Counted from the stretch's first letter, positions 12,205 through 55,527 are shown. The stretch: 64,000 nucleotides of DNA from Dehalococcoidia bacterium (GCA_965203135.1 CBDBBO010000001.1:1780983-1844982); one strand, 5' to 3'. Notes: a model not told the origin generated them from the sequence alone. Translations and numbers: made by a program.

Positions 12205-12432
12205 TTGCCTTCTCAGTACATCCGTGCTACCGTCAATGCATGACTCACCCGAACCGCCATTCGCCAGCCCACTCCGCCACTACGGCTGGGACACTCCAAG
12301 GGCTGTCCCATGTCGGTCGCAGTTTCGGCTTTTTCGGCGCCGACACCACCTTTTCGGCGGCCCGTTACGGCTTAACCCGCCAATGCAGCCAGCTACGAAA
12401 TGGAACAAAATGCAACGGAATGAAACACTTTT
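12205..12432 (+). repeat. Dispersed promoter/operator + CCAGCTACG module, copy 1
   Basis: TTGCCT-N17-TACCGT with AGTAC-ATCC-GTGCT box; CCAGCTACG at 12389 followed by three 10-mers. Confidence 0.7.
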
Positions 12433-12526
12433 GCCCAAAATCCCCGTCGGCACGGACGGCATGTGGCCCCACCTCCGGCGCCGTTCCGGCCTAGTTCTGG
12501 CTTATGCCGACGAGAAGATGGCTCCC

Positions 12527-12838
12527 CTAGCGAAACGTCACATCGAGCGCGCGCTCGAGGTTGCCCAGGTACTCGCTGAAGGCCAGCCGTCCCTCCGGCG
12601 TCGCCTCCACCCACGTCCGGGGCTTCGAATCCACGAACTCCTTGGCCGTGCTCACGTAACCGGCGTCTGCCAGCTTGCGCAAGTGAATGGTGAGATTCCC
12701 GCCCGTCAGCCCCAACGTCCTCTGGATAAACCCATACGCCACCCGGTCCGACTCGGACCGCGACACCAGCAGCGTCATTATGCGCAGCCGCGTGGACTGG
12801 TGGATCGTCTCGTTGAGAACGACCGCCTCCGTGCTCAT
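12527..12838 (-). CDS. Winged-helix transcriptional regulator (HTH_34/MarR-like)
   Basis: IHQSTRLRIM...LTGGNLTIHLRKLADAGYV...KPRTW. Confidence 0.9.
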   Translation of the reverse strand: MSTEAVVLNETIHQSTRLRIMTLLVSRSESDRVAYGFIQRTLGLTGGNLTIHLRKLADAGYVSTAKEFVDSKPRTWVEATPEGRLAFSEYLGNLERALDVTFR

Positions 12839-13471
12839 GCTACGCCGCTCTTCCGTGTCCACGCCCACGCGACTGCCACGACCGCAACGATCAGCGCCGC
12901 AGACAACACCGGCGCGGCATCGCCGGCGAAGTGTGCGGGCAGGTAGAAGGCAACCGCGATGCCAACGCCTACCAGGGCGATGGCCGGGTGGTGCAATATG
13001 CCGAACAGCACGTATCCCAGCGCGATTATGCCGACGCCCGTTCCGGCGATGCCCACCGGATCGAGGTCTGATGTCCACAAGCCGGACGCCGCGGGAATCA
13101 CGAATGCGGCCGCCACCACCGCCATCCAGAACCCGAAGACGCGCAGACCCGCAGCCGTAGCAGACGGTCCGCTCGCGTTCCTCTTGCTGGCCCGGTGGCC
13201 GATGATCGAGCTTGCGATCATGCCCGGGACTCCCAGGCCGAGCCACAGCGGCCCCGGATACCACGGGTACTCGGCGGCAAAATCGGACGCCCATGTTCCG
13301 ACCGCGTACATCGAAACGTACCCCACCGCCACGATGGCCCCCCACAACAGCATGATGCTGCCTCCAGCCCGCCATGTACATGGAACTGCGCGACCTGTCC
13401 AGCGTCGCGTGTATCGACGCCAGTCCCTGGTCCGCGCTGATACGCTGCTCCTCGTCTTCTCGGTTCCTCAT
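12835..13471 (-). CDS. Integral membrane protein, apparent frameshift near 13362
   Basis: MRNREDEE...SMYMAGW joins IMLLWGAIV... if one base is removed from TGGAGGCAGC; about 6 TM segments; translationally coupled to the regulator. Confidence 0.75.
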
Positions 13472-13491
13472 GCTGGCCCTCCTTTCCGCAA

Positions 13492-13516
13492 TGCAAACTA
13501 GTTTGTATTGTAAACT
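13492..13516. promoter_or_regulatory. Putative autoregulatory operator
   Basis: CAAACTAGTTTG and AGTTT-N7-AAACT palindromes just upstream of the membrane protein/wHTH operon. Confidence 0.5.
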
Positions 13517-13636
13517 ACTTCCGCACACTTGTCAAGAGCCACGCCCTGCCGTAACCCGTCAAGCTATTGTGGCACGACTCACGACCAGGAGATGAACAAC
13601 ATTCGTTGGCGAAGAAGGCTCACCACGCCTTCGGTG

Positions 13637-14385: not shown

Positions 14386-14388
14386 GGC

Positions 14389-21575: not shown

Positions 21576-21720
21576 CTTGACGTGTTTTGGTGATCTAGGG
21601 GTGACTCAGGCTGTCAGGAAACTAACCTGGGATATTCCTAACAGCCTAAGGATAAGCGTCGTGCAATTGGGATGCCATTTGGTGAGCGACGGGGCACCGG
21701 TACCCTCGGCCATAAAGGTC

Positions 21721-21795
<75 letters not shown>

Positions 21796-22155
21796 ACGAA
21801 CAAGGCGCACATCAAGCGTACTCAAGCCCCAATGGGGTGTCAAGGCGTCGCGGCTTGGGGACAGGGCCTTTTCGTTATCCATCGCAAGAGTGCTCGCATG
21901 TATCTTTGCGACACCTCTCGCATGGAACACAGGCTACCCCACGCTCCCTGGCCGGAACCACCCCGAAAATCGTGTCTCAAACCTTCCCAACCGCGTAACC
22001 CAAACGCCACACCCATTCTCATCGGTGCGCAATCCCTTCCCATCTGTGTCACAAAAATTCCCACTCTCAGGCCCATTCCCACGATCTTATGTCAAGTAGC
22101 CCCGCCTCGCGCCAACAAAATCGGCGGACTCACACAATTGTCCCTGACCACCCCC

Positions 22156-22392
22156 TTGATTCTACAGTACTTATGTGCTAGTATCCATCACATAGGCGCT
22201 GCTGCCGCCGGTTGTGGAGTATGAGCGAGCTTCAAACTCGCTCACCCCCGGCCCGGCGCCACCGTCCCGTTCTGCGACATTTCGCGCAATGCCCGTGACG
22301 AACCTTAACAACTTGGCTCACAGAAAGTGACAAGAACATCGGGCCGCCCAGCTACGGAATGTGCAGAATGTAGCAGAATTGAGCAGATTTTT
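22156..22392 (+). repeat. Dispersed promoter/operator + CCAGCTACG module, copy 2
   Basis: TTGATT-N17-TAGTAT with AGTAC-TTAT-GTGCT box; CCAGCTACG at 22348 followed by GAAT-type repeats. Confidence 0.7.
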
Positions 22393-22507
22393 CGGAGAGC
22401 CCGCCCAAAGCCCCTCAAGCGGGAGGGGGAAAGAGCCTGGCCTACCGCCCCGACAACCCATACCCGCTACCCCCCAGGCCCTTTAACAACTCAATCGGCG
22501 ATAACCC

Positions 22508-28348: not shown

Positions 28349-28448
28349 AGTTGCGAGGGGGCAAGGGATGGACGGGTGACGGGCTACCAAGCGGAGTAGC
28401 ATCCGGGCAGTGGCAGTGGCCAAACTGCCGGGTGGGACAATTCAGCTA

Positions 28449-38163: not shown

Positions 38164-40227
38164 TCACCCCCCGCAGCCCTCGGGCTCCTCGTATCCAGTC
38201 ACCTTCCCGCGTAACCCGTCGGGTATGCACCCGCTCAGACCATGACTGCGGTCGAGATACAGTGTCTCTAACGACCGTAGGTTACCCAGCTCCGGTGGGA
38301 TGGAGCCACTAAAATAGTTGTCTCTCAAGCTCAACTGCTTCAGAGCCGTCAGGTTGCCCAGTTCCGGCGGGATGGGACCGAAGAGACCGCTCCTTCCTAA
38401 GTCCAGGGATTCGAGCGCCGTCAGGTTGCCCAGTTCCGGCGGGATGGGGCCATCGAAACGACCGGCCAGATTGAGTTCTCGCAGATTGGCTAGCTCCCCC
38501 AGCTCAGGGGGGATGGGGCCGACCAGGTATGGCGTGTACCTATAACGTGACCGGTCGTCTGTGAGGTCGAGCACCCTCAGCTCGCTGAGCTCAGCCACTG
38601 CGCGAGGCAAGGGACCTACCATGTCGCGCCCCGGCAGGGAGAGACTATGAACTCGTAGCGAGGTCGACGTCTCACTGCTGTAGCCCTCCCTGGTCGTCTC
38701 GCCGAGTGTTATTCCCTCCCACTCGGAGATGGGCGTTTCCGCGTTCCAGTTAAGCCCCACGACAGCGAGCCGGTCCATCATCTCCACAAGTGCCTCACAG
38801 TCCCGCACAAGGCCAGGGTTCGACTCCAGGTCGGGGATCACGACCGCCGAGGAGCACACTGTTTCTGCCGAGTGCCTCTGCCCTGGGCCTGCGACTTCCA
38901 CAAGGCCCTTCGCGCTCCGTCTCGCCAGGACCCGCACGCCCGATCCGTCCGGCGACACGGTATAGAGCGCAACGTCCGACTTTTCATCCGCCACCAGTAC
39001 GGCGATACTTGAACCGTCTGGAGACCAGGACGGGTAAGTGGATGGGAGAGTCGTGATCCATGTTGCTACAGAGTGGACTCCAGAACCTTCCCACTGAACG
39101 AGATACAGAAGCTCACTTGGAGAAAACATGATCTGGGGACCAGTGAAATACGGAGACCAAGACACCCAACGGCCCCCTAGTCTTGCGTAGTCCGCATCCG
39201 GTCCGACCACTTCCCGCAAGTCTGATCCGTCACGGTTGACGGAGTAGAGCTTAAGGCGAACAGGTTGACCCTGTCGCCGTAGAAAGGTGATGCGAGACCC
39301 ATCTGGAGACCACACGAGCGGGCCCACAAGCGACCTCGACTTCCGATTCGTTACTCCGAGGGGCCTTTCCTCACCAACTACCAGCCTCGTCATACTGGAA
39401 TCACTGACATCGACCGTTACGAGAGAGGCGCGCTTGCTGCGCGTGATTGCGACCGACGGGTCGCGTCCATGCAGCGTCTCATCGATTATCAGGGCAACAG
39501 TCCGTCTATCTGGAGCCCACGATATGGTTCCAGTCAGAATATCCCTCCCTGACACGCCCCATTCCTTGCCAGGTATGACCTTGCGTACATCAGAGCCATC
39601 AGGCCTCATGGTGTAGAGCCCTATATCCGCAGGGTCGTGGGCACAAGGGGACTCGGCGTCTCTGGTGAACGCGATACGGGTGTCGTTGTCCAGCCAATCG
39701 GATGGGACATCGAATCCCACCTCGTGAGTGAGCCTCTTCTGTTCGGATCCGTCGAGAGCGGCGTTCACTATCTCAAAGTAACGCTTGTCCTCATCCACGT
39801 CATTGTACGCAGAGTACATGATGCGTGAGCCGTCACTAGAAACAATCGGGGAGTGGAATATATCACTCTCTTCGCCTATTGTGAGCAGACTCGATCCATC
39901 TGCCGCGACGACGTGCACTTGGCTTCTGCTTCTACTCTCAGAGTACAAGTCTGACCGGGTCGTAAAGACTATGTGTGCCCCGTCTGGTGTCCAGCGCGGC
40001 GATTGTCTGAGCAATTCTCGGTTGTAGATGTGGAGAAAGTCTGACGAGGTGTAGTGGCTCATGCCCGACTCGGTACTGAATGCTCTCGAAAGCCTACATT
40101 CAGACCAGTTGCCCCAGTTGCCGTAGTAGCTCATACACGCCCTCACCGCCAGCGCGATCCCGAATATCAACGCGAGTAGGACCGCCCATCTCGCCGTCCT
40201 GCTTTTCAATGCGTTGCTGAAGTTCAT
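38164..40227 (-). CDS. TolB-like (PD40) beta-propeller + LRR protein
   Basis: Repeated WTPDG/WSPDG/PDGSD blades; C-terminal LRRs with LVRDCEAL cap; N-terminal signal. Confidence 0.85.
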   Translation of the reverse strand: MNFSNALKSRTARWAVLLALIFGIALAVRACMSYYGNWGNWSECRLSRAFSTESGMSHYTSSDFLHIYNRELLRQSPRWTPDGAHIVFTTRSDLYSESRSRSQVHVVAADGSSLLTIGEESDIFHSPIVSSDGSRIMYSAYNDVDEDKRYFEIVNAALDGSEQKRLTHEVGFDVPSDWLDNDTRIAFTRDAESPCAHDPADIGLYTMRPDGSDVRKVIPGKEWGVSGRDILTGTISWAPDRRTVALIIDETLHGRDPSVAITRSKRASLVTVDVSDSSMTRLVVGEERPLGVTNRKSRSLVGPLVWSPDGSRITFLRRQGQPVRLKLYSVNRDGSDLREVVGPDADYARLGGRWVSWSPYFTGPQIMFSPSELLYLVQWEGSGVHSVATWITTLPSTYPSWSPDGSSIAVLVADEKSDVALYTVSPDGSGVRVLARRSAKGLVEVAGPGQRHSAETVCSSAVVIPDLESNPGLVRDCEALVEMMDRLAVVGLNWNAETPISEWEGITLGETTREGYSSETSTSLRVHSLSLPGRDMVGPLPRAVAELSELRVLDLTDDRSRYRYTPYLVGPIPPELGELANLRELNLAGRFDGPIPPELGNLTALESLDLGRSGLFGPIPPELGNLTALKQLSLRDNYFSGSIPPELGNLRSLETLYLDRSHGLSGCIPDGLRGKVTGYEEPEGCGG

Positions 40228-43200
40228 GGGTCAGCCTGATACAGCGCATAGATAGCCATGATGTCGAATGGATGGGGAGAGCAGTCGGGCTCATTTAGCG
40301 GCGAAGGGGCCCACCTTGCCCAATCTTCAGGTACACCTTTATCATAGTTCATCACCGCGTCCGGAATCGTAGGGTGTGCGGCTTCATATGGTTGGACATC
40401 CTCAAAGAACGACCAGAAAGGTTCCGTAACAAGACCCGCGTAACTGAAGTTGGATAGCCCCAGGGCATGTCCTGCTTCGTGCACAGCGAGCCTGTAAGCC
40501 TTGTAACCATTGTCGGGATCGGCGTCGGCCGGGTTCACAGCGTCCAGGCAGGTGTTGAACTGAGTACTGGCAGGCATTTTAACTGGATTCACGAAGCTCT
40601 CCTGGTTGAAGGTCACATCAACGCTTACTATCTCATTCTTTGCCTCCCTGTTGCTAAGGAACGCTCTCAATAGGATACGCCTCTGGATGTTCGGTAGGGC
40701 ATTACAGCCTAGGAGATCCTCGTTCTCACAGGCATCAATCGCTTGAGCATGCTGCCTCCGTAGTATGCTATCTGGGCCAATGCCGGAATAGCCAGAGAAC
40801 GAGGTGACACAGGCATCGGCACCCGCGACGCACAACTTGAACACGTCCGAATCAACCTCAGGGAATGACAGGACTTTAGACAGTCCATTGGCTGCATCGA
40901 GCATCCTGACTTCACTTCGGTCATCATCATCCATGATGAACTCACTCATTCTGGTGGAAGTGGACTTTTCGGAACAACGCCATACGCCCACACCATCAAC
41001 GCGAGGCGTCATGGTGATGAAGTTGTCTGTTGAGGTTGCCCACTCCCCAAAGGCGCTCTTGATGAGTTCAACCCATTGGTCATTCTCATTGACCAATGGA
41101 GTAGATGCATCATCGGGGGGGAAAGTGTCTCTGCAGATGATGTATTCGAACTCTCGATTCCGGTGGTGTCCAAAGAAAGTGTATGTCCCCACCACGCTGT
41201 CATTCGCTGGAACATCGCCAGACGGCCAGACGAAGGCATCCCTTGCAGAGAACACCTTATCGCCCGTAGTCGTCTCGTAGTTGAATTGGAATGCGTAGAT
41301 TGGCTCTGCGCGACCGCGACTCCCCTTTTCAAACGGCAGGCCTCTGATCGTTGTTGATGTCAGTGAAGGAGAGACATTCACAGGTGAAGAGTATTCACTA
41401 CCATAGTAAGGCCAACCTGCCCTTTCAGGCCACTCATGGTTGTCGTGGCTGACATGCCTGGTGTTCTGACCAGAGCCTCGCTCGTAGCTGCCCAATCGCC
41501 TGTGTCTGATCGAGTATGCCTTAACATGCGATATGCCGATCCACTCCAAGCGAGCTTCGCCCTTGCCGGAAGCCCTTGCACTGCCACCCTCAGTCAGTAG
41601 GGGGTTGTCTATAACCCTGATGATGTCGCTGTGTGTGCTGTCTATCTGCCCTATGCCGTCGCCCACCGCCCTTACGCGATACTCATATGACTCGCCAACG
41701 CCTAGATGCGCCATGCCATACTCCGTGTCCGGAACCGTGCTCGTACTCACCCATACCGAGTCCAGTATGATAGTCGCGCTTGCGTTGGACACTGGCAGAA
41801 GGACATTCGCCTGCCGCCACGTCGATGTAGCGCTATTCCGAACCTCCACCTCGTACCCGCTGGCTCTTGCGTCCCCATCCCAACTCAGTTCGGCTCTGCG
41901 AAGAGAGAGCGGAGAGACTATAAGGTTGGTAGGAGCGCTGAGTGTGGCCATCGGCGTCGCTTCAACGTGTGTCGTCCAATCGGATTCGTCTGCGCTGTTC
42001 ACGCTCCTGACCCGGTGAGCGTACGACGTGCCGTTGGTCAGTCCCCCGACATTGGCCGTGGAGTCGGCTATGGTGACTGTTGTGGTGGAGCCATCGAGGG
42101 TGAAGGGGGCGAAGGGCAGCGTGCGCCATGTTAGGTTTCCTGGAGAGCCGTCCCACTGCTGCACCTCGTACGAGGCCGCGCGGGCGGCGTCGTCCCAGTC
42201 CAGCGTTATCGTGCCGTCGCCGGTTGTGGTGGCCAGGTTGGTCGGTATGTCAGGGGGCAGTTCTTCAACCGTCACATCGAATAGGTCCACTACCCACAGT
42301 GTTCCAGGATGGCCGGGAGGGCCGTCCCACGCAACGACCGTGACCGACACGGAGCCTGCGGATAACGCCTCGAGTGTGAGCGTGCTTCCGCTGACCGTGG
42401 GATTCACGACGCTAGTGTCCTGCGACGTGACCGTGTAGATGAGAAAGGTCCCGTCAGGGTCGCCGAAAGTCCTGTACAGGTCAATCGTCGTGGAGGCTCC
42501 GGCGGTCATCGTCCTGTCGGCGATCTCCGTGTCTACAAACGGCCACTCGTTCACGTTGGTGACGGTGACGGTCACGTTACTGTCAGCCCTGAGATCGCCG
42601 TCGCTTGCACTGACCGTGACCTCGTACACATTGTTCCTGCCAGAGTCGATGGGATTCTCAAAGTCCGGGGCACTCTTGAAGGTGAGTTCGCCGCCGGAGA
42701 AGTTGAAGTCGCCGGCATCGGTGCCGCTAAGCGACCACTCTATGCCGCGGCCGCAAGAAGCCGAAGCGCGGTAGATCGCGACATTACCCCTACCGTTCTC
42801 GGAATAGAACAGGGGTGAGGCCGGACCCCTGATGACCGGCGCCGAGTGCCGATCGTCGTCCGTAATGGCGATTTTCGCTTCCTTCTGCGAACCCTCCACC
42901 ACTCCAGTCGGCCGGGTCCCGAAGCTCAGTTGTATCTCCTCGTCCGCACAATCCGTGTCGTGAAAAATGAAGTACGTGAATGCACTGGACGTGGCGTTGC
43001 TGCTGAATCTGGCCGTGCGTTCGAATCGCGGGCCCACCTTCACAGGTATGCGCAAGCTATGGCCCGGCGTCTTGCTCAGCTTGACTGTGATATCCACGCT
43101 CGAACCCTCGTTCACCGAGTACTCCTTCGAGCCGAACATCACACAGATTTCGTCGTCCGCGATGACGATGTCAGCGTCGTCTTGCGAACCGTTCGACACG

Positions 43201-44264
43201 TTAGGCGGCGGGTCGCCGAGGCTCAGTTCAATCCTCTCGTTCTCACAACCTCTGTCATGGTTGGTTCTGACAGTGAACGACTCCGACGTGTCATGCGGCT
43301 CGAAGGCCAGCTTGCCATTGGCCAGACCGCTCACGCTGTAGTCTTCGCTTTCAGCCGTATCCGCAGTTACCGTTACCGGTATACTGAACGTGTGGCCGGT
43401 CGGATGGCTGAGATTGACCGTGACAACCGCGTCCGATCCCTCGTTGACGTCGTATGTCGCCCTGCTGAACCCTACGGTCGGGTCGGCGACATTCAGGAAG
43501 TGGTCCGTCAAGCCGGATGAGGCGATGGCGTTGCCTCCCACCTCTTCCACCCACGCCCAGAGATATGACCCCGGCGCCGCGCAGCCGTAGGCGTCGTAGC
43601 TGCTGGTGGCCGAGGTCGCGCCCCGTATGGTTTCGGTCTCTTTGAAGTTGGTGCAGCCTCGGTTGAACGCCGCGCTGATTCCGTTCAGCACGACCGTGTT
43701 CAGCTCGTATGTCTTGGCTCTGCTGAGTCCCGTCGCGCTGACCGAGAAATCGTCTTTCGAACCGCCCGGTATCAGGTCCGCCGAAGTGACGCCGCTGAGA
43801 GCCACCGAGAGCGGCGCCTGCCCGACCACTCCTCGAGGGGTGATGGTTACGCTCACCTCCTCGATTACGTGTTCCGTGCCGGACGCGACCAGCCGCACGT
43901 AGCCGTCGCCGACCGAGCAGGCGTTCAGCGTGACCCAGGTGGGCGCGGCGGCGGGCTGCGTGGCTCCGGGCGTGGCGCCGTCGCACGCCTGGCCTTCCGG
44001 CGTGAAGTGCTCGCTGTAGTGGATTTCCACTTCCGTATCGAGCGGGGCCACGTGGAGGCCGACGGCGAGCGTCGTCTGCCCCACTTGCACCACGCCTGGC
44101 ACCACTACCAGTTCTCCGGTGGGCGTGGAGGTCGCGGTAGACCCCTCCTGCGCCCGTACCGTCTCTATGCCGCTCGACGGGTCGAAGAGAACGGCCGCCA
44201 GCGCCAGGAGGCTCATCGCCACCACCGCGAGCGGGATTGTCGGCGCTAGGCGATGGCCAGACAT
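40224..44264 (-). CDS. Secreted protein A2: conserved stalk (Calx-beta, cadherin, FN3) + C-terminal zinc metallopeptidase (metzincin-like)
   Basis: Signal peptide, VNEG/DDE Calx-beta motifs, PDFENP cadherin, FN3, HEAGHALGL and AVMNY Met-turn. Confidence 0.85.
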   Translation of the reverse strand: MSGHRLAPTIPLAVVAMSLLALAAVLFDPSSGIETVRAQEGSTATSTPTGELVVVPGVVQVGQTTLAVGLHVAPLDTEVEIHYSEHFTPEGQACDGATPGATQPAAAPTWVTLNACSVGDGYVRLVASGTEHVIEEVSVTITPRGVVGQAPLSVALSGVTSADLIPGGSKDDFSVSATGLSRAKTYELNTVVLNGISAAFNRGCTNFKETETIRGATSATSSYDAYGCAAPGSYLWAWVEEVGGNAIASSGLTDHFLNVADPTVGFSRATYDVNEGSDAVVTVNLSHPTGHTFSIPVTVTADTAESEDYSVSGLANGKLAFEPHDTSESFTVRTNHDRGCENERIELSLGDPPPNVSNGSQDDADIVIADDEICVMFGSKEYSVNEGSSVDITVKLSKTPGHSLRIPVKVGPRFERTARFSSNATSSAFTYFIFHDTDCADEEIQLSFGTRPTGVVEGSQKEAKIAITDDDRHSAPVIRGPASPLFYSENGRGNVAIYRASASCGRGIEWSLSGTDAGDFNFSGGELTFKSAPDFENPIDSGRNNVYEVTVSASDGDLRADSNVTVTVTNVNEWPFVDTEIADRTMTAGASTTIDLYRTFGDPDGTFLIYTVTSQDTSVVNPTVSGSTLTLEALSAGSVSVTVVAWDGPPGHPGTLWVVDLFDVTVEELPPDIPTNLATTTGDGTITLDWDDAARAASYEVQQWDGSPGNLTWRTLPFAPFTLDGSTTTVTIADSTANVGGLTNGTSYAHRVRSVNSADESDWTTHVEATPMATLSAPTNLIVSPLSLRRAELSWDGDARASGYEVEVRNSATSTWRQANVLLPVSNASATIILDSVWVSTSTVPDTEYGMAHLGVGESYEYRVRAVGDGIGQIDSTHSDIIRVIDNPLLTEGGSARASGKGEARLEWIGISHVKAYSIRHRRLGSYERGSGQNTRHVSHDNHEWPERAGWPYYGSEYSSPVNVSPSLTSTTIRGLPFEKGSRGRAEPIYAFQFNYETTTGDKVFSARDAFVWPSGDVPANDSVVGTYTFFGHHRNREFEYIICRDTFPPDDASTPLVNENDQWVELIKSAFGEWATSTDNFITMTPRVDGVGVWRCSEKSTSTRMSEFIMDDDDRSEVRMLDAANGLSKVLSFPEVDSDVFKLCVAGADACVTSFSGYSGIGPDSILRRQHAQAIDACENEDLLGCNALPNIQRRILLRAFLSNREAKNEIVSVDVTFNQESFVNPVKMPASTQFNTCLDAVNPADADPDNGYKAYRLAVHEAGHALGLSNFSYAGLVTEPFWSFFEDVQPYEAAHPTIPDAVMNYDKGVPEDWARWAPSPLNEPDCSPHPFDIMAIYALYQADP

Positions 44265-44388: not shown

Positions 44389-47300
44389 CTAGCCGGGATC
44401 CGTGACGCTGACCACCACCGTGGCCGTCGCCGCGCCGCCCCTGCCGTCGGCGGCCCGGACCGTCAGCGTGTGCGACGCCGCGGTCTTCCGGCTCAGCGCG
44501 CCCGCCACCGTGAGCGCGCCCGTGGCCGGGTCTATGGCGAACTCGCCGCCGTCGTTGCCCGCCGTGATGGAGTAGGACACCGCGTCGCCCGCGTCGGGGT
44601 CGGTCGCCGACACCGTTCCCACCGGCGTGCTCGTCGCCGCGTTCTCGGCCACGCTGAAGGCGTAGCTGGACGTGGCGAACACCGGCGCGCGGTTGGCGCA
44701 GTCGGGCAGACCCAGGTCCGCGAGGTCGTTGTTCGCCGCCTCCCGAAGCCCGAGGGGGACGCAGCCCGTAAGCGCGTTGCCCGCGAGGAACAGATAGTCG
44801 AGGTCGAGCCGAGCGAGGCCCGGGGGTATGGCGCCGATGAGCCGGTTGTCGGAGAGCCACAGCTCCTCCAACTCGGCCAGCTCGGCCAGCGCCGGGGGTA
44901 TGGAGCCTGTCAGCCGGTTGTTGCTGAGGTTGAGTTCGGTCAACTCGGTGAGTTCTCCCAGCCGCGCGGGGACGGCGCCGCTCAGGTCGTTGCCGCTGAG
45001 GTAGAGCACCTGGAGGCTGGCGAGGCCGCCCAGTTCGGGCGGTATCTCGCCCGTCAGGTCGTTGTCGAACAGGTGGAGGTGCGTCAGGTTGGCGAGGCCG
45101 CCCAGCTCCGGCGGTATCCCGCCCGTGAGCCGGTTTGTGTCGAGGTCGAGCCTGGCCAGGTTGGAGAGTTGGCCCAGTTCGGGAGGTATCTTCCCTGTGA
45201 GCCGGTTGTCGAACAGGAAGAGGTGCTTGAGGTTGGAGAGTTGTCCCAGTTGTGGGGGGACCGGGCCGGTGAGAGCGTTCTCGTAGAGGTCTATCCTGGT
45301 CAGCCCGGTGAGCGCGCCCAGCGCCGGCGGTATGGAGCCGTCCAGGCCCAGTTCGGCGAGTCTGAGTTGTTGGACGCGGCCTCCCCGCACGCGCACGCCC
45401 TGCCAGTCGGTGATGGGGTTGTCGGCGCTCCAGTCGAGGCTGAATGAGCCCGCGAGCGTCCGCATGACGCCGTGGTAGAGGATGAGGCAGTCGGCGACCA
45501 GGTCTGCGCCGGTGTGCGGTAGGACCACCCCGTCGCGGCAGACGGAGGTCACCGCTATCACCACCTTGGCGGTGGCCGCGCCTCCGTCGGCGTCGGCGGC
45601 CCGGACGGTGAGGACGCGGGACGGCGCGGGTTCGAGGAAGAGTGGGCCAGCGACGCTGATGCGGCCCGTGGCCGAGTCTATGGCGAAGACTCCGGCGTCG
45701 TTGCCGGCCGTAATCGAGTACGACACCGCGCCGCCTTCGGGGTCGGTCGCGGACACCACACCCACCGGCGTTCCGGTGGCGGCGCCCGCATCGATGGTGA
45801 AGGCGTAGCTGGACGTGGCGAACACCGGGGGCCGAGAGCACGCGCCGGTCGTCGCCGTGGCGGTCGCGGACCATAGGCCGGCCTGTCGGTCGTAGGTGGT
45901 CCCGTCTCCGTACGCGCCCACCCGGAACTCGTATGTGGCGCCGCAGCGCAGGCCGGCCGCCTTGTGGGTCGTGCCCGTAACGCTGGCGTCCACGCTCTGC
46001 CACGCCTCTTGCCCGCTCTCGCGGCGCTGGACTTGGTAGCCCGACGCGCCGCTCACCGGGTTCCAGGACAGGTCGGCTGCGTCCATTGCCGACGGTGCGG
46101 CCGTCAGGCCGGTGGGAGCGGGCGCGTATGGCAGCGCCTCGCGTATGCGCAGCATCAGCTTGGCGCCGTCCTCCCACGACTGGGATGGCACGGGCCAACT
46201 CAGCGTGGCGTTGGGCGCGTCCACCGCGGCGTCCGACACCGACAGGGACAGAGACACCGTTCCGTCCAGCTCGATGAAGTCGAGCCTGTGGCCCGCGAGA
46301 CCGGTGTGGGGGCTGAGCCTCATCTCGACGCTGCCGGATTCCCACGCGATGCGCTGGATGGTCGAGGTCGCGCCGTTGGTATCGGTGAACGACGCGAGCT
46401 TGAGGACGCCGTTGGCGCTGTCGGCGGCGACGGCGTTGCCGTCCGTGACGGGGTCGAAGAACGCCTCGTGGAGCGTGCCTTCGGGGGCGATGGCGCTGAC
46501 CGTCCATTCGGTAACGAGAAAGGCGTTACACGGTATCATATTGGGTTCCAGGTCTTTTACGGTGAATCTGTAGTCCCCAGCCGGAATCGGTCGCACCGGC
46601 CTGAGAGACTGCGTGTACCGTATGAAGTCAATTCCATCGGTGAGAACACCGTCGCGGTTCCAATCGTCGGGAGTCGTGGGGCCATCGACAGTCTCGAACA
46701 GGTCGGCGTCTCCGCCTTCGAGCGAGGTCTGCATTCTGGTGTCAGGGTAAATGCCAAACCCATCGCTCTCGAATATCACCGTGCCCGCGGGCGATCCGGA
46801 CACCAGCCTGTGGGTGTCGAGGACAGCTCTGATACCCAACTTCCTGCCCTCGCTTTGGGCGTGCCGTTCCTCGCGCTCAGCTTGGTATTTGATGCTGACG
46901 CAATTCCTGTAAGCTTCAGAGCCGTCGCCTGCGTTCAACTCGGCGTTGATCGCAGCGATGCGGCTCTTCAACTCCCGAATGGTTATCGTAGGGGTGTCCT
47001 TGCCCGGCTCGGGCACGGCGAGCAGAAACTCCTGGTCGTCCCCCGTCGCGCTCGTCCCCGCGGACGGAAGCCACAACTTGCTATATCGGTCTTGCAGGCT
47101 GTACCTGTCCTGGTAGGGGCCGCCGATAGACAGGAAGTAGTCGTTGGCCCCCTGTACTGCCGCGCTGAAGATATCGTAATGGTCATCGCTATTGAGGAAG
47201 ATGATCGCCTCGAGGTCGTCCCAGGTGGTAACCTTGTTGGCGGCGATGCCCGGCTCTGTGTCCTCGGCCTCACTCTGGGTGTCGTAGCCTCCACCCTGAA

Positions 47301-47661
47301 TTGCGAATGCGGTAATGCTGCTCTCGCCGGACCCGCGCAGGTACTCGCTCACCGTCAGGTGAAACCTCAGGGCGACGTAGTGATAGTCGCTCCATTCTTC
47401 AGTCGTCGTCGTGGCAATCTCACTCGTCGTCGTGGCCAACCGCGCCTTGACGATGGTGTCGGCATTCACTATCCGCTCTTCTATGGACTGCTCTCCGTGG
47501 TAGGGCTGCTTCGCGCCTGCGGCGGCCGGAGGGATGCCCGTGGACGGGGGCGGCGCAGGGGGCGCTGCGGGCGGCTCTGCCTGTTCGTCTGGTCGCGTGA
47601 CCAGGGAACAGGCCAGCAGCGCGCAGGCCAGCAGCATCGCAATGATAAGTTGCGTCCTCAT
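44389..47661 (-). CDS. Lipoprotein B1: variable N-terminal domain + FN3 + cadherin + LRR + cadherin
   Basis: MRTQLIIAMLLACALLAC lipobox; C-terminal approx. 485 aa near-identical to B2. Confidence 0.88.
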   Translation of the reverse strand: MRTQLIIAMLLACALLACSLVTRPDEQAEPPAAPPAPPPSTGIPPAAAGAKQPYHGEQSIEERIVNADTIVKARLATTTSEIATTTTEEWSDYHYVALRFHLTVSEYLRGSGESSITAFAIQGGGYDTQSEAEDTEPGIAANKVTTWDDLEAIIFLNSDDHYDIFSAAVQGANDYFLSIGGPYQDRYSLQDRYSKLWLPSAGTSATGDDQEFLLAVPEPGKDTPTITIRELKSRIAAINAELNAGDGSEAYRNCVSIKYQAEREERHAQSEGRKLGIRAVLDTHRLVSGSPAGTVIFESDGFGIYPDTRMQTSLEGGDADLFETVDGPTTPDDWNRDGVLTDGIDFIRYTQSLRPVRPIPAGDYRFTVKDLEPNMIPCNAFLVTEWTVSAIAPEGTLHEAFFDPVTDGNAVAADSANGVLKLASFTDTNGATSTIQRIAWESGSVEMRLSPHTGLAGHRLDFIELDGTVSLSLSVSDAAVDAPNATLSWPVPSQSWEDGAKLMLRIREALPYAPAPTGLTAAPSAMDAADLSWNPVSGASGYQVQRRESGQEAWQSVDASVTGTTHKAAGLRCGATYEFRVGAYGDGTTYDRQAGLWSATATATTGACSRPPVFATSSYAFTIDAGAATGTPVGVVSATDPEGGAVSYSITAGNDAGVFAIDSATGRISVAGPLFLEPAPSRVLTVRAADADGGAATAKVVIAVTSVCRDGVVLPHTGADLVADCLILYHGVMRTLAGSFSLDWSADNPITDWQGVRVRGGRVQQLRLAELGLDGSIPPALGALTGLTRIDLYENALTGPVPPQLGQLSNLKHLFLFDNRLTGKIPPELGQLSNLARLDLDTNRLTGGIPPELGGLANLTHLHLFDNDLTGEIPPELGGLASLQVLYLSGNDLSGAVPARLGELTELTELNLSNNRLTGSIPPALAELAELEELWLSDNRLIGAIPPGLARLDLDYLFLAGNALTGCVPLGLREAANNDLADLGLPDCANRAPVFATSSYAFSVAENAATSTPVGTVSATDPDAGDAVSYSITAGNDGGEFAIDPATGALTVAGALSRKTAASHTLTVRAADGRGGAATATVVVSVTDPG

Positions 47662-47696
47662 GGCTACCCTCTCAACTTCAGGTGTCTCTCGGAGCA

Positions 47697-50600
47697 CTAC
47701 TTCGCGGCGTGACTTGAATGGCGCCTGTAGATGGCCTCGAGCTGCGCGATGTCCGTGTCCTGTATGCTCTTGGCATCCCAGTACGCATTCATTATGGCAA
47801 GCTCGGCGTTTAGTTGTGGGTCATAGTTTGTAGACGGGTGGGGACCCCGAACTGAGTAGAAGTCCGGCAGACCCAGTGTGTGTCCTAGCTCGTGGAGCGC
47901 CAGATGCTCGGCATGAACAAAGTAAATGCGGGGCGGGCCCCGTGTTATCCGTATGCCGCTCAGGTTCGGGTTGCTCGTCCATACATACCTTATCTGCTCG
48001 GCAGGCAAACACGGATTGAGAGGGCTGTCACACCCATAGGGCGGGTCTTCGAAGATCACGTCCATGTTCGTGATGTGGCCGCCTACACCGTCGCGTGTGG
48101 GTATGGGCGTACCGGTCAGAGCTACACAGGCGTGGCTGCTCCCGCATCCGGTAAGGTTGTCTCTGGGCGAGCTCGGGGCCACAGTCTTGATGGTGGCTGT
48201 GTACCCGTCAGAATTGCGGCTGCGGCAGTCGTTGTCGGCGGTATCGCATATGCTCAGGACGGGGTTGATGCTGGTGTTCCACTGGGCAATCGCCGTCGGT
48301 ATCGCGGTCTCAAGGCTCATCTCAGAAATGGCGCCTATGGTATAGCCGACGGTGTGGTCGGCCTGGTGCCCCCACGCGTGCGTTGGTTCTTCCGCCAAGA
48401 GCCCCGCGCTCGTGGCCGCGGGGCCGCTGCCCGAACCGTTATGACCCTTGACGGAGAACGTGTAGTCGGTTCCCGGAACCAGTCCGAGCACGTTGAGGGA
48501 GAATGTGGCTGGGAAGCGGGCGCTTCCAGGGCTGACCTCTACCCAGGGGAAGTTCGGTATCTGGGATACGGTATGGGGTCCACTGGCGAAGCTGAACTCC
48601 AACGATGGGCTGTGGGGCGTCGCCCTGACCATGTAGGACGATGCGTTGGCGACACTTGGCACCCATTCAAGCAGAAAGCCCCTGTACCCTATCAGGTGGC
48701 TGACTGTCGGAGTGGGCGGCGCCGCCAAAGGCGATTCATCAGTAACGGTCGTCGAGACCACGTTGGATTCGGCGGACTTACCCTGCACGCTCTGGGCCTT
48801 TATCCTGTGCTCGTATTCCTCGCCGGGAGTAAGCCCGCTGACAACGACCTGGATCCTGCCGCCGCTAGTGGTTATTGAGCCTATGGTCACGCCATCATGC
48901 GGTAGCCTCCTCCATCCGGAGTCGAGCGGATTCAGGGTCGGGAAAAGCTGCTCTACGTGGTAGTTGCCGTCCAGATCATCGGCGACGTCGGGATTGGGAA
49001 CGGGGTCCCAAGAGAGCGTTAACTGCCTGTATTGCATCGCCACGTACTGGCCTTGCAGGTTCTGTGGGGCCGGCCTCAGGTTGACGGTGACTTCGCTCGA
49101 ATCGGCGGTCTGGCTGTCTCTGACGGCTCGAATGATGAACATGTGATACTCAGCGGTGTCGAGGCCATCGACCATCGTTGTGGTTACGCCGCTTCCCAGG
49201 ACCTGAATCGTGGTGTAGACACAAGGGCCGGGCGGGATGCGACGGCTCCTGCAATGTCGCACCTCATAGCCCGTCGCGTCTGATACAGCGTCCCAGTCGA
49301 GGCTGACGGTACCCGCAGTCCTTGTAAGTGTGTAGGTGAGATTTTCAGGCATTTCGAGTGGCGGCGGCTCCACCGTCACCGTGAATTGGTTGAATGCCCA
49401 CAGTGTGCCGGGCCGGTTGGGAGGCCCGTCCCACGCAATGACCGTGACCGGCACGGAGCCTGCGGATAACGCGCCAAGTGTAAGATCGCTTCCGCTAAGG
49501 GTGGGATTCACGACGCTAGTGTCCCCCGACGTGACCGTGTAGATGAGAAAGGTTCCATCAGGGTCGCTGAAGGTATCAGTCAGGTCGACAGTAGTGGAGT
49601 CGCCGGCGGTCATCGTCATGGCGGCGATCGGCGAATCTACAAACGGCGGCTCGTTGACATTGGTGACGGTGACGGTCACGTCCAGATCACCACTGGAACT
49701 GCCGTCGCTGGCCGTGACCGTGACCAGGTATTCGTTGTCTTGGCCGTCGTCGGTGGGATTCTCGAAGTCGGGGGTATTGTTGAAGTTGAGTTTGCCGTCG
49801 GAGGTGATGTTGAAGACGCCTGCATCGGTGCCGCTTAACGACCAGCTTATGGACCTGCCGCATGAAACCGAAGCGTCGTAGGTCGCCACCTCGTCGTCAC
49901 CGTTCTCGGCATAGTTCGGTGAGGCCGGACCGTCGATGACCGGTGCCGAATACGTATCGTTGTCCAGATGGGTGATGCGGGACACGTTCGGCGAACCGTC
50001 CACGACTCCACTCGGCCGCCTGCCGAAGGTCAGTTCTACCTGCTCGTTCGCACAGTTCCTGTCGTTCGGGGCTACGTAGGGGAAGGTATTCCTCGTGGCG
50101 TTATTGCCGAAGGTCACCGTGCGGTTGGTCCCCGGGGTCGCAATTACTATTACACTCACGGTACGGCCCGGCGCCCTGCTCAGCGTGACTTCGATGTGCC
50201 CGGTCGTACCCTCGTTCACCGTGTAATTCCTGGAGCGGAACATCACACAGACTTCGTCATCGGCAATTACGATTTCCGAATCGTCCTGCGTGTCTTGCGT
50301 AGGCTCGGACACGTGAGACGGTAGGTTTCCTATGCTCAGTTCTATCCTCTCGTTCACACAATCGCCGTCGTGGTTGGTGCTGACAGTGAACGACTCTTCG
50401 GTATCGTGAGGCTCGAATGTCAGCTCGCCCCTGGTCAGGCCGCTCACGCTGTAGTCGTTGCCTTCGGCCGTATCCGCGGTTACCGACACGGGTATTCTGA
50501 GTCTGTGCCCGGTCGGATGGCTGAGATTGACCGTGACAACCGCGTTCGCTCCCTCGTTGACGTCGTATGTCTCGCTGCTGAACTCTACGGTCGGGTCCGC

Positions 50601-51294
50601 GACGTTCAGGAAGTGGTCGTGCAGACCGGATGAGGCGATGGCGTTGCCGCCCACCTCTTCCACCCACGCCCAGAGGTATGACCCCGGCGCCGCGCAGCCG
50701 TAGGCCTTGTAGCTGCTGGTGGCCGAGGTCGCGCCCCGTATGGTCTCGGTCTCTTTGAAGTCGGTGCAGCCTCGGTTGAACGCCGCGCTTACTCCGTTCA
50801 GCACGACTGTGTTCAGTTCGTATGTCTTGCCGCTGCTGAGTCCCGTCGCGCTGACCGTGAACTCGTCTTCCGGACCGCCCGGTATCAGGTCCGCCGAAGT
50901 GACGTCGTCGAGAGTCACCGTGAGCGGCGCCTGTCCGACTAGTCCTCGTGGAGTGACGGTTACGCTCTCTTCCTCGATTACGTGTTCGGTGCCGGACGCG
51001 ACCAGCCGCACGTAGCCGTCGCCGACCGAGCAGGCGTTCAGTGTGACCCAGGTGGGCGCGGCGGCGGGCTGGGTGGCTCCGGGCGTGGCGCCGTCGCACG
51101 CCTGGCCTTCCGGCGTGAAGTGCTCGCTGTAGTGGATTTCGACTTCCGTACCGAACGGGTCCACGTGCAAGCCGACGGCGAGCGTCGTCTGCCCCACCTG
51201 CACCACGCCCGGCACCACTACCAGTTCTCCGGTGGGCGTAGAGGTCGCGGTAGACCCCTCCTGCGCCCGTACCGTCTCTATCCCATTCGACGGG
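47697..51294 (-). CDS. Protein A1: paralog of A2 with a different metallopeptidase tip; 5'-truncated (no original start or signal peptide)
   Basis: Stalk homologous to A2 (offset 7113) up to 51294; first in-frame start is GTG 51218; HELGHTLGLPD and AIMN. Confidence 0.8.
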
Positions 51295-53229: not shown

Positions 53230-53252
53230 TCGGTGCGGATGGCCGGCGGCGC

Positions 53253-53810
53253 TCAGCCCTGGCGGGCGTACTCTGTCGCCAGCATCCCCATCACCACCGA
53301 GTCGAACCGCGAACCCTCGTGCGGGCGGCTCTTTCGCAGCGTTCCCTCGTGTACGAACCCGAGGTGGCGGAACAGCGTGAGTGCGGCTGCGTTGTACTCC
53401 GGAATGTCCGCCCAGACGCGGTACAGCCCGTAATCGTCGAACGCCTTCTCCAGCGCGGCGCGCATGGCCGTGGTGCCGAAGCCGTGATGCCACATGTCCT
53501 TGCGTCCGATGAGTATCGATATCTGCCCGTCGCCCAGCGATTCCTCGATGGCCAGATGAATCTCGCCAATGTGCTCGTCGTTCTCGCTGTAGATGGACAG
53601 GATGCGATGCTCGGGGTCGTCGAAGATTCGCCGCCACTCCTCATCGGAGACGTCCAGCACCTCGTTCGGATGGTATCCCAGGTGCGCGGGGTCGCCGTAG
53701 GAGTAGCGTCCGAACCAGCTCTCCGCCACCTCGTCGTCGTCCAGCCAGGTGCGTATGCGGGACACGTCCTCCCGGGTCACGTCCCTCAGCGTAACGTGAT
53801 GTTGTTCCAT
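53253..53810 (-). CDS. GNAT acetyltransferase (RimJ/RimL-like)
   Basis: WHHGFGT, EYNAAA, LGFVHEGTLR. Confidence 0.9.
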   Translation of the reverse strand: MEQHHVTLRDVTREDVSRIRTWLDDDEVAESWFGRYSYGDPAHLGYHPNEVLDVSDEEWRRIFDDPEHRILSIYSENDEHIGEIHLAIEESLGDGQISILIGRKDMWHHGFGTTAMRAALEKAFDDYGLYRVWADIPEYNAAALTLFRHLGFVHEGTLRKSRPHEGSRFDSVVMGMLATEYARQG

Positions 53811-53864
53811 TGGTTACCTCCTGGGTGTACAGCCGCGACACCCGCGTCCCCTGTCCTACCCGTT

Positions 53865-55163
53865 CTAGCCGGCGGCCGCTCCGGCGCCGGCCCTATCGGG
53901 CAGCCTCAGCATTACGGTCAACACGATCGTTCCGACCAACACGAGGGCGCCGCCGTATACGAACGTCGCCTGGACGCCGTAGTTGTCCCACATCAGGCCG
54001 GCTATCACAGGCGAGAGGGTGCCGATGAAGCTCGCGCCGTAGATGAGCGACACTATCGTCGACTGGACCGCGCCCTCCGCGGCCTCTATGGCCGCCGCGA
54101 TGAATATGGCGTGCAGCGCGTACAGCACCGTTCCCATCACCATGATGGTAACGACAAGCCAGCTTATCTGCCAGAAGAACGGCTCGGGGTCGGCGAACCC
54201 GAGCGTCATGGCCAGCAGGCTCATCAGGAGCATCGACGGCACCAGCACCGGCTTGTAGCCGAACTTGTCGGCCAGATAGCCCATCACCGGCTGGGCCACG
54301 ATGCCCACGACCTGGGCGAGAGACAGGTAAATCGCCACCTTGCTCGCCGAGAAACCCAACCCTCCCTGCTCAACACTTTCCCGGAGATAAACGGGAAGAA
54401 AGATCATCACCGAGCTCTGGCCCACGCTGCGGAGCGCCGTTACGATGACCAGCACGTAGAGCGCCTTGCGCTTGAGGAGCGACAGCAGCGAGGAGAAGTA
54501 CTCCCGCACGGACGAGACGGCCTGCATCTCGCCGCCGGGCACGTTGCGCATGAACAGCCAGATGGCGACGGCGCAAACCAGCGCGGGGAAGAGGCTGTAT
54601 ACCAGCACGGAGTCCCAGCTCATCGCCAGCCAGCCGAGGAGCACGACGCCCGCCAGCAGCGGACCGGCCACCTCGCCCACGCTGCCGCCGGTGCCATGCA
54701 GCGATATGGCGAAGCCGCGGCGGTCGGGGAAGCGGCGGGACAGCGCGCCGATGGCGGGCGGGTGGTACAGCGACGGCCCTACGCCGACCAGCAGCATGAT
54801 GGCGAGGACGGCGATGAAGATCAGGTTCTCGGAGACGACGCTGTCGGCTATGCCCAGCAGGTAGTAGGACACTCCCATCATCAGGAGCGATATGCCGAGC
54901 ATGAGCGAGGCGCGGTCGGCGAACCGGTCGCCGAGAAATCCGGCGAAGACGGTGGTGACCCAGCTCGTCGCCTGGCGGGAGAACGCCAGCGTGCCGAGCT
55001 GGGTGCCGCTGAGGCCGAGCCCTATCTTGATTTCCGGGAACAGTATGGACTGTAGCGCTGAGTTGTAAACGTGCTTGACGGCGTGGCCCACGACGACCGT
55101 TGCCGCCAACTGGTTGCGCCCGCGCCTGAGCTGGGGCGACACCTCTACGGCTTCTGTTGACAA
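53865..55163 (-). CDS. MFS transporter (Fsr-like)
   Basis: About 12 TM, GFLGDRF / GYLADKFG motifs, YHPP; TTG start after GAGGGAG. Confidence 0.9.
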   Translation of the reverse strand: MSTEAVEVSPQLRRGRNQLAATVVVGHAVKHVYNSALQSILFPEIKIGLGLSGTQLGTLAFSRQATSWVTTVFAGFLGDRFADRASLMLGISLLMMGVSYYLLGIADSVVSENLIFIAVLAIMLLVGVGPSLYHPPAIGALSRRFPDRRGFAISLHGTGGSVGEVAGPLLAGVVLLGWLAMSWDSVLVYSLFPALVCAVAIWLFMRNVPGGEMQAVSSVREYFSSLLSLLKRKALYVLVIVTALRSVGQSSVMIFLPVYLRESVEQGGLGFSASKVAIYLSLAQVVGIVAQPVMGYLADKFGYKPVLVPSMLLMSLLAMTLGFADPEPFFWQISWLVVTIMVMGTVLYALHAIFIAAAIEAAEGAVQSTIVSLIYGASFIGTLSPVIAGLMWDNYGVQATFVYGGALVLVGTIVLTVMLRLPDRAGAGAAAG

Positions 55164-55233
55164 GTCGGCTCCCTCGATTCCGGTTGGATGCACGCGCAAT
55201 TATAGCACGTAGGCGAGCCAGGCTTGGGGGGGC

Positions 55234-55527
55234 GTTTCTTGTTCGATTCTGTTGCATTCTGTTGGATTCGTAGCTGGGCGTGTCGTTGGTCCTGCTCGAT
55301 TCTGTAGTGCCGGAGTGGGCAATTCAGGACATAGGCGTCGCGCCGCGCGGCAGAATGGGATAGGGGCAGGAGTTCACCCCCATCCTAGCCCATTCGGCAG
55401 GCTCAGGGCAGGCTCTTCCCCCGTCAAGGGGGAAGGGACATTGGGAAGGCCCGGGTCGGTCCCGCGGGCGGGTTTGAAACCCGCCCCTACCGTGTGCGAT
55501 GATAGCACGTATGTGCGTATACTTCAA
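55234..55527 (-). repeat. Dispersed promoter/operator + CCAGCTACG module, copy 4 (interrupted by REPs)
   Basis: TTGAAG-N17-TATCAT with CGCAC-ATAC-GTGCT box; CCAGCTACG at 55277-55269, then GAATCCAAC AGAATGCAAC AGAATCGAAC. Confidence 0.7.
55375..55490. repeat. REP-like composite repeat
   Basis: CACCCCCATCCTAGCC...CTTCCCCCGTCAAGGGGGAAGGGAC plus GGGCGGGTTTGAAACCCGCCCCTAC; same parts as 8119 and 28283. Confidence 0.75.

Follow-up and report, generated by a model that had tools for sequence, protein, structure and literature searches.

A dispersed family of promoter-bearing intergenic units in a Dehalococcoidia genome, with an invariant 3' motif and a possible link to antitermination

What does a non-coding module do that recurs in four unrelated intergenic regions of one stretch of bacterial DNA? 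The stretch analyzed here, which we call the window, comprises 64,000 nucleotides (nt) of a Dehalococcoidia bacterium (GCA_965203135.1 CBDBBO010000001.1:1780983-1844982). An original prediction made from this DNA described four copies of the module, each consisting of a promoter overlapped by a LexA-like box and, farther downstream, an invariant motif with phased A-rich 10-bp repeats, and it interpreted the module as a high-copy, possibly DNA-damage-inducible small RNA or mini mobile element. We find that the four copies belong to a genome-wide family of promoter-bearing units that mostly point at the next gene, and we tentatively read them as promoter-plus-leader cassettes.

The window sequence bears out all four copies, both in their placement and in their motifs (Table 1). 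Each promoter features the predicted -35 and -10 hexamers separated by 17 bp, and the palindrome over the -10, GYAC-N4-GTGCTA, occurs exactly four times in the window compared with 0.15 expected (12216 and 22167 on the plus strand, 28654 and 55516 on the minus strand), which corresponds to once per copy and nowhere else. The invariant motif CCAGCTACG follows each promoter, with 156, 164, 133 and 222 nt between it and the -10 in copies 1 to 4. This motif was found eight times in the window compared with 0.57 expected, and the four occurrences that do not belong to copies (35029, 36172, 44661 and 45804, minus strand) lie within repeated coding sequence of large open reading frames (ORFs). The smaller shared parts were also recovered, including the REP-like inserts of copy 4, which occur inside other family copies as well; the block GCCCACTCCG(C/G)CACTAC of copies 1 and 4, which belongs to a stretch conserved in one subfamily; and the upstream CCCGAAAAT...GTGCGCAAT..CTTCCCA of copies 2 and 4.

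We evaluated the two motifs across the genome that contains the window, which is represented by a 3.49-Mb assembly of three contigs with 64% G+C and 95% completeness (referred to as G000). The motif CCAGCTACG occurs 142 times, of which 76 are followed by an A/T-rich tail, and GTGCTA is present 52-268 nt upstream in 70 of those 76. Using a profile of the tail, defined as YCAGCTAYG, A-rich 10-mers and a T run, we detected 111 sites at E < 1 (E-values are approximate here, as are z-scores based on few shuffles), including motif variants such as TCAGCTACG and CCAGCTATG, and a promoter was present upstream of 95 of these tails. The promoter pattern TTGNNN-N5/6-GYAC-N4-GTGCTA occurs 107 times, and for 92 promoters a tail is found 60-450 nt downstream on the same strand, compared with one when the tail was sought upstream and four when it was sought on the opposite strand. 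Most of the "orphan" promoters do lead to a tail, but to a diverged one (CCAAGTACG and CAGCTAGG are examples). These co-occurrence counts indicate that the promoter box and the tail are the two ends of a single unit and that the family has about 100 or more members, as anticipated by the description of a high-copy, non-coding module whose motifs travel together.

The units share a common plan. A sigma-70-type promoter (TTGAnn, 17 bp, and TAnnnT with a TGC extension) carries the dyad GYAC-N4-GTGC over its spacer and -10; an untranslated body of 130-370 nt, which tolerates REP-like insertions, leads to a 3' end in which YCAGCUAYG precedes three or four 10-nt units that are rich in A, and then a U run. 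Several subfamilies, for which the labels are our own, can be distinguished: copy 2 belongs to the largest (M), copy 3 to the six-member subfamily c and copy 4 to subfamily D, while copy 1 is a singleton in the genome. A conserved small ORF was considered and rejected by eye, because the frames across the tail vary by subfamily, stops interrupt them and the bodies hold REP inserts.

The orientation of the units relative to genes is strongly biased. Genes were called by our own crude procedure based on third-position G+C (GC3), and the binomial test that was applied relies only on strand symmetry, which makes it independent of gene-call accuracy. In 74 of 89 units, the first gene downstream runs in the same direction as the unit (two-sided binomial p = 1.5e-10). 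Forty units lie between divergent genes and 5 between convergent genes, and within tandem gene pairs 34 units are co-oriented compared with 10 that are anti-oriented (p = 3.9e-4). The neighbors of the window copies are those predicted: copies 1 and 2 face convergent minus-strand genes, for an HTH_34 protein and TatD, respectively, and copy 4 precedes a co-directional MFS gene. However, the impression of stand-alone units facing convergent genes does not extend beyond the window, because copies 1 and 2 prove to be exceptions. The proteins encoded downstream are mutually unrelated, with the largest blastp cluster containing 3 of 74, and Pfam matches were obtained for 63 of the 69 that were scanned. 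These matches include GroEL, GroES, S6, S15, L9, AlaRS, class II tRNA synthetase (D/K/N), RelA/SpoT and Fur, along with DXS, PspA, the ammonium transporter Amt, MFS and ABC proteins. A homologous promoter region thus stands ahead of non-homologous housekeeping genes and faces them. A second, ordinary promoter often lies between the tail and the gene, as at copy 4, and the distance from tail to promoter varies widely.

We also examined how the units are conserved among related genomes. The M-type sequence of copy 2 was found in all eight other genomes of the genus and in none of 32 searched genomes of other genera. A strict motif pattern matched 57 stretches in a species-representative collection, of which 49 are in Dehalococcoidia bacterium records (four assemblies) and the remaining 8 are single matches in unrelated taxa. 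The promoter 14-mer GYACATCCGTGCTA is present 43-53 times per genome in four sampled members of the genus; two genomes from a second family of the order contain 15 and 3 copies, and two further genomes contain one each. It was absent from the remaining 113 genomes, and a reversed-pattern control was present in only 1 of 121. The units of this second lineage follow the same plan in other words, with a promoter, TGTTCC "anti-units", CCCAG(A/G)TAG and AATGGAACA three times.

When 14 pairs of orthologous units were compared, the motif proved 99.2% identical, the tail 85.7% and the promoter 81.1%, compared with 73.7% and 68.2% for the flanks and 63.4% for the body. The locus of copy 1 is conserved in three relatives (G001, G003 and G005) with promoter and tail almost unchanged and the body much altered. 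Alignments of this kind indicate that promoter, motif and tail are under purifying selection. Among the 57 stretches, both flanks could be mapped to G000 for 21, and a unit was found at the same place and strand in 16, which span about 5-15% flank divergence. No unit was present at the other 5, and the copy-2 locus in G005 carries a subfamily-c unit in the opposite orientation, so relatives differ in the presence and type of unit at given loci.

A feature of subfamily M connects the units to ribosomal RNA. Approximately 45 nt upstream of the motif, M units carry the boxA-like word ACCTTAACAAC, with a potential hairpin, CGCGC-AAT-GCGCG, just before it. In G000, the only 16S leader contains two promoters, the potential hairpin CCCCTC-ACTAAAA-GAGGGG and then cACCTTAACAAttgg, and alignment revealed that the same 10-mer and TTGG are common to the M units and this leader. 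Exact ACCTTAACAAC is present on the sense strand of 21 of 80 units, with none antisense and none in shuffled sequences, and 21 of its 24 copies in the genome lie within units. When up to two mismatches are allowed, the word is found in 35 of 80 units compared with 1.15 in shuffles, and several small subfamilies have near-matches close to the 5' end. The M word is similar but not identical to the boxA consensus GYTCTTTAANA, which is derived from another group, the gamma-proteobacteria (as given in PMC5725501), and boxA elements outside rRNA operons are the subject of earlier reports (Baniulyte et al., 2017, PMC5725501; Warner et al., 2023, PMC10250234). The genome has genes for both NusB and Rho.

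Comparison with the boxB-boxA-boxC leader of rrn operons reveals both likenesses and differences. Like the organism's own 16S leader, M units place a potential boxB-like hairpin on the transcribed strand ahead of ACCUUAACAAC and UUGG, and their upstream pyrimidine-rich strand can pair with the purine-rich tail, which is reminiscent of the leader-trailer helix that includes the rRNA boxA-like stretch. In contrast, the units have no rRNA between these strands, they occur as dozens of dispersed copies ahead of protein genes, and the other subfamilies are without a clear boxA. The promoters also differ, as the two rrn promoters have neither GTGC nor the dyad and are unlike those of the units.

Additional observations concern boxA-like words and the 16S locus. 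A second such word, G(C/G)CCTTTAACAACTCAATCGG, which is closer to the classical CTCTTTAACAA, is located downstream of copies 2 and 3 on the same strand as each (22478-22497, plus strand; 28037-28056, minus strand). The sequence CCTTTAACAAC occurs eight times in the genome, and six of these continue with TC (TTTAACAACTC). The 16S gene (contig C3, locus L148, 4065-6100, minus strand) precedes a tRNA and, beyond it, apparent protein-coding sequence, as judged by reading; no 23S match was found in the 6.4 kb scanned near it, and 16S looks unlinked from 23S. We make no claim of homology between the invariant motif and the 5' end of 16S rRNA (CCUGGCUCAG), for which about 6 of 9 positions agree by eye.

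The account that we favor, although with less than even confidence, is that the units are dispersed cassettes of a distal promoter plus a leader, partly protected by a Nus/boxA system, from which transcripts run into the downstream gene. The units lie upstream of genes and face the next one, and they would often act on top of its own proximal promoter, with transcription proceeding from the unit promoter through the leader into that gene. In subfamily M, the hairpin and the ACCUUAACAAC leader could enable antitermination of the NusB/NusE type, by which the long untranslated transcript would escape Rho. The dyad would be read by a dimeric regulator other than LexA or would simply be a lineage-specific promoter feature, and the motif-plus-repeat 3' end would serve as a recognition site for another factor. 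In some subfamilies this 3' end may pair with upstream "anti-units", which would place the motif inside a long hairpin. The account draws on what was observed of unit structure, copy number, the joint occurrence of the motifs, their conservation and the identity of the boxA-like word, as described above, and specifically on the linked ends of the unit, the purifying selection, the promoter-bearing intergenic placement, the sixfold orientation bias, the boxA-like word and the lack of a terminator. With respect to the latter, a scanner found no terminator-like site after any of the four window tails, in which the U run has no GC hairpin before it, and there was no excess of intrinsic terminators in 18 kb scanned.

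Several points weigh against this account. The exact boxA-like word is limited to one subfamily (the 21 of 80 units above), and B and D have no convincing one. Co-orientation with the next gene is lacking in 15 of 89 units, window copies 1 and 2 among them, and all orientation counts derive from the crude gene calls. Many downstream genes would not need the cassette for their transcription, because a promoter of their own lies between the tail and the start codon. Of the four window promoters, a generic sigma-70 scanner recognizes only that of copy 4 on the claimed strand, and the -10 hexamers of the window copies are weak and rely on the TGC extension. The terminal U run could equally mark the end of a stand-alone RNA, and a cassette does not account for the role of CCAGCUACG and the 10-nt repeats. 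Transcription, 3' ends, read-through, Nus recruitment and a binding partner are each inferred from sequence. An extended version of the account, according to which more than 100 gene-upstream regions share the promoter, the dyad and, in the largest subfamily, a hairpin-boxA derived from the rRNA leader, such that dozens of housekeeping genes would be Nus-protected and Rho-resistant under one regulator while CCAGCUACG with its phased repeats would be a new protein-recognition RNA motif, strikes us as distinctly unlikely.

Whether the transcripts instead form a stand-alone RNA depends in part on structure. In subfamilies M and B, the anti-tail is predicted to pair with the first tail units at -20 to -36 kcal/mol, and 21 of 76 units reach z <= -2 (30 shuffles each). 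An 18-pair M/B helix evaluated over 51 sequences has 88.6% of its cells paired compared with at most 50.9% when slid, with only two pairs double-changed; the sequences aligned for such counts were picked with word filters in one case (51) and visually in the other (22). RNAalifold returned essentially no consensus structure for the 51 M/B sequences. In a swap test with 15 tail types, the cognate tail was the best partner in 4 and among the top three in 7, while the reversed-tail control gave 1 and 3; the mean normalized energy was -3.29 versus +0.23, and 14 of 5000 permutations were as low. One second-lineage unit (L149) is predicted to form a long nested helix (z = -5.09), with two others at z = -2.09 and -0.46, and the window copies fold no better than shuffles (z = -0.49, +0.47, +1.33 and -0.44). 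A hairpin proposed by hand before the motif in subfamily D was rejected, as it too was no better than shuffles. The strongest signals are linear sequence motifs; structure in the RNA of some subfamilies is plausible.

The results on pairing bear most directly on the possibility that the units are a family of stand-alone small RNAs of 150-350 nt that end at the U run, with the motif and repeats serving as a protein platform or a trans-pairing seed. Such RNAs would explain the discrete unit ends, the 3' U run, the strong conservation of motif and tail, the excess of cognate over non-cognate complementarity between body and tail, the helix of L149 and the presence of the downstream genes' own promoters behind many tails, and co-orientation with the next gene would merely avoid antisense transcription. 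However, an efficiently terminated RNA does not require the observed orientation bias, the four window tails have no hairpin-plus-U terminator, and covariation is weak or absent in the two helices tested, in addition to the unremarkable folding of the window copies. Hfq and CsrA were not found in the 95%-complete genome. We regard this possibility as doubtful, although worth retaining. Somewhat less credible is a miniature inverted-repeat transposable element (MITE) or otherwise selfish DNA repeat that is tolerated mainly in gene-upstream regions, in which the 10-bp repeats and upstream module would be subterminal protein sites and the promoter incidental or a relic. High copy number, diverged subfamilies, the five mapped loci without a counterpart and the opposite-orientation swap of subfamilies are all consistent with such an element, as are the REP-like and IS insertions within bodies. 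A "left module" of about 30 copies, which usually stands ahead of M and B units, contains inverted GGAAT-type words and is missing together with the unit at "empty" sites. Hallmarks of transposition were nevertheless not found. The one full unit tested gave a terminal-inverted-repeat score of 17 compared with 14.0 +/- 1.9 (maximum 22) in shuffles; at E < 1, the left module in reverse orientation is not picked up by the tail profile; and on following the original prediction's proposal to look for empty sites, we found neither a clean empty site nor a target duplication at three "empty" loci, where unrelated sequence replaces the whole composite. The 95%-complete genome has no Y1_Tnp match that would indicate a Y1/RAYT transposase, no longer parent element was seen, and 16 of 21 loci keep their unit. 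The promoter is furthermore more constrained than the body, and the orientation bias argues that transcription matters.

A regulatory array acting at the DNA level, in which the dyad is the operator of a global repressor and the phased repeats bind a protein or bend DNA, would fit the symmetry of the dyad, its constant register over the -10 and the 10-bp phase of the repeats. The protein could be a direct-repeat binder of the response-regulator type or a nucleoid protein, and at copy 4 about 35 bp separate the end of the tail from the -10 of the next promoter downstream. However, nothing identifies a binding protein, the distance between tail and promoter varies widely across the family, and the presence of a promoter 130-370 nt upstream on the same strand is more readily explained by a transcript than by a pure DNA site, which leads us to consider such an array improbable. 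Less probable by far, to the point that we give it hardly any credence, is the LexA-controlled, DNA-damage-inducible element of the original prediction. SOS boxes often overlap the -10 as this dyad does, the dyad resembles the RGTAC-N4-GTWC-like site of cyanobacterial LexA, with which it shares a 4-nt spacing, and the genome encodes both RecA and LexA (LexA_DNA_bind, 57.6 bits, 254-aa frame). Yet GYAC-N4-GTGC is absent from the upstream regions of both SOS markers, lexA and recA (0 of 2), which contain GAAC-ATTT-GGTC and GAAC-AAAT-ATTT, respectively. These words are of the type GAAC-N4-GTTC, which we take to be the LexA box of Dehalococcoides and Gram-positive bacteria, and for this reason the DNA-damage interpretation is not supported. 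Furthermore, GTGCTAnnnT is present at 277 sites in the genome, 80 of which are in units, and also represents the extended -10 (TGC plus hexamer) of genes' own promoters behind tails, such as GTGCTAGAAT and GTGCTATAAT. The part of the box that is specific to units is the left half-site GYAC. What stands of the small-RNA-or-mobile-element inference is the high-copy, non-coding, promoter-bearing module with its co-occurring motifs; its link to LexA and DNA damage does not.

The dyad keeps the same register over the -10 across all subfamilies and in subfamily M becomes perfect (TAGCAC-N4-GTGCTA). Based on its sequence and position, it may be the operator of some non-LexA dimeric regulator or a lineage-specific promoter feature. 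The half-sites also resemble those of CIRCE/HrcA (TAGCAC/GTGCTA), a candidate that was rejected because N4 instead of N13 lies between them and a distinct CIRCE-like site is present at groES. That site, the inverted repeat TTAGCAGTC-N9-GACTGCTAA (G000 contig C2, near 851,550), lies behind the groES promoter and downstream of a unit. On the minus strand, the dyad of copy 2 coincides with a promoter-like site identified by the scanner (22159-22187, TGGATA-17-TAGAAT, 9 of 12), which aims through the left module at tRNA-Met (21721-21795, minus strand). Units with a left module have a divergent upstream gene in 20 of 29 cases (p = 0.06), and bidirectional firing at the M-subfamily dyad is possible.

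How do the units compare with known dispersed elements? Correia/NEMIS, ERIC and REP/REPIN elements are high-copy intergenic repeats that are vertically stable, some of them with promoters and internal inverted repeats. The units resemble them in copy number, intergenic placement and vertically stable copies, and differ from them in having no significant terminal inverted repeats, target duplication, clean empty site or detectable RAYT/Y1 transposase and in their strong strand bias toward downstream genes. The searches thus found none of these defining features of MITEs and REP/RAYT systems (terminal repeats, target duplication, empty sites and transposase). The same repeat families are named in work on putative mobile promoters and promoter reuse (Nijveen, Matus-Garcia and van Passel, 2012, PMC3575422). 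Like mobile promoters as outlined there, the units present near-identical promoter regions that face non-homologous genes; unlike them, the units have a far larger transcribed non-coding part, an invariant 3' motif with repeats, a shared dyad and more than 100 copies per genome. The nearest functional analogy for a unit would be a mobile promoter coupled to a boxA leader of the rrn type. Taken together, the units are of a known kind, promoter-bearing dispersed intergenic repeats, and are set apart by the invariant 3' motif and a possible link to antitermination.

If active, the units would be among the most numerous transcription starts in the genome, roughly one per 30 kb, and would link genes for chaperones, ribosomal proteins, tRNA synthetases and transporters through a common promoter type and dyad. 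The exact match between the boxA-like word and the rRNA leader raises the testable idea that many protein genes have acquired, along with a promoter, a copy of Nus-type antitermination. In uncultured Dehalococcoidia, the invariant 9-mer and its phased repeats make a clean candidate for a new element of RNA- or DNA-protein recognition. Searching Rfam at the gathering threshold over the whole window returned only tRNA-Met, and relaxing the search to E up to 5 on copies 2 and 3 produced only chance-level matches; no paper in the searched library contains any of three motif strings from the units.

Table 1. Coordinates of the four window copies and their associated parts, counted from the first nucleotide of the window.
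Feature	Position	Strand	Remarks
Copy 1, whole unit	12205-12437	+	-35 TTGCCT 12205-12210; -10 TACCGT 12228-12233; body, motif, tail
Copy 1 dyad	12216-12229	+	GTAC-ATCC-GTGCTA, overlapping spacer and -10
Copy 1 invariant motif	12389-12397	+	CCAGCTACG
Copy 1 tail	12398-12437	+	A-rich 10-mers AAATGGAAC AAAATGCAAC GGAATGAAAC and T run; nearly invariant among four species
Left module	21925-22135	+	~200-bp repeat ahead of ~30 M and B subfamily units
Copy 2, whole unit	22156-22395	+	M subfamily; -35 TTGATT 22156-22161; -10 TAGTAT 22179-22184
Copy 2 dyad	22167-22180	+	GTAC-TTAT-GTGCTA
Copy 2 anti-tail	22269-22287	+	GTTCTGCGACATTTCGCGC, complementary to tail units 1-2
Copy 2 boxA-like word	22302-22312	+	ACCTTAACAAC, short hairpin before; 10-mer shared with own 16S rRNA leader
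Copy 2 invariant motif	22348-22356	+	CCAGCTACG
Copy 2 tail	22357-22395	+	GAATGTGCA GAATGTAGCA GAATTGAGCA GATTTTTCGG
Copy 3, whole unit	28449-28665	-	Subfamily c; -35 TTGACA 28665-28660; -10 TACGCT 28642-28637
Copy 3 motif	28504-28496	-	
Copy 3 tail	28495-28449	-	
Extension behind copy 3 tail	28035-28448	-	Repeated in subfamily c; REP-like hairpins; end near GCCTTTAACAACTCAATCGG
Copy 4, whole unit	55234-55527	-	Subfamily D, REP-like inserts; -35 TTGAAG 55527-55522; -10 TATCAT 55504-55499
Copy 4 motif	55277-55269	-	
Copy 4 tail	55268-55234	-	
Copy 4 upstream module variant	55528-55672	-	CCCGAAAAT...GTGCGCAAT..CTTCCCA
MFS gene's separate promoter behind copy 4 tail	55199-55210	-	ACGTGCTATAAT

Other repeats are found in and around the units. 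Further REP-like intergenic families (GGGGCGGGTTTCAAACCCGCCC, CCCTTCCCCCTCGCAGGGGGAAGG...GGATGGGGGTGA, GAGCCTGCCCTGAGCCTGCCGAACGGG and CATTCCGAGCGCAGCCGAGGAATCTAA) insert into unit bodies and stack behind tails, for example at 55375-55490 and 28270-28360 (minus strand) and at 22396-22470 (plus strand). Elsewhere in G000, insertion-sequence (IS)-like insertions break units or their REP inserts on contig C2 at 696,912 (minus strand), 58,204, 310,712 and 909,960 (plus strand), and one of these has the terminal words TCCAACTAATT and AATTAGTTGGA and an ORF that reads like a transposase. We conclude that the units are targets of these insertions and not their relatives. A CRISPR-like array with the repeat GGTCTATCCCCGCGCGTGCGGGGCAACC lies on contig C1 near 1,419,155, and one of its spacers contains CCAGCTACG. 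Within the window, very large minus-strand ORFs (747-1346 aa) with internal repeats occupy 34757-37000, 40224-44264, 44389-47697 and 47697-51218, and their sequence makes them look like tandem-domain surface-type proteins. The CCAGCTACG pairs in these ORFs (35029/36172 and 44661/45804) are each 1143 bp apart in near-identical coding context.

The units account for intergenic breaks in short-read assemblies of these organisms. In contigs from four public runs, the summed depth rises 10- to 30-fold at 21717-22317 and 28328-28928, where contigs stop. A contig joint at 28350>28630 has just 23 letters on its shorter side and is unreliable. Small shares in sponge and coral metagenome runs were left aside. 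One public contig spans copy 1 with zero differences (18 kb compared, four runs), and one run, labelled sponge metagenome, contains diverged contigs across part of the window.

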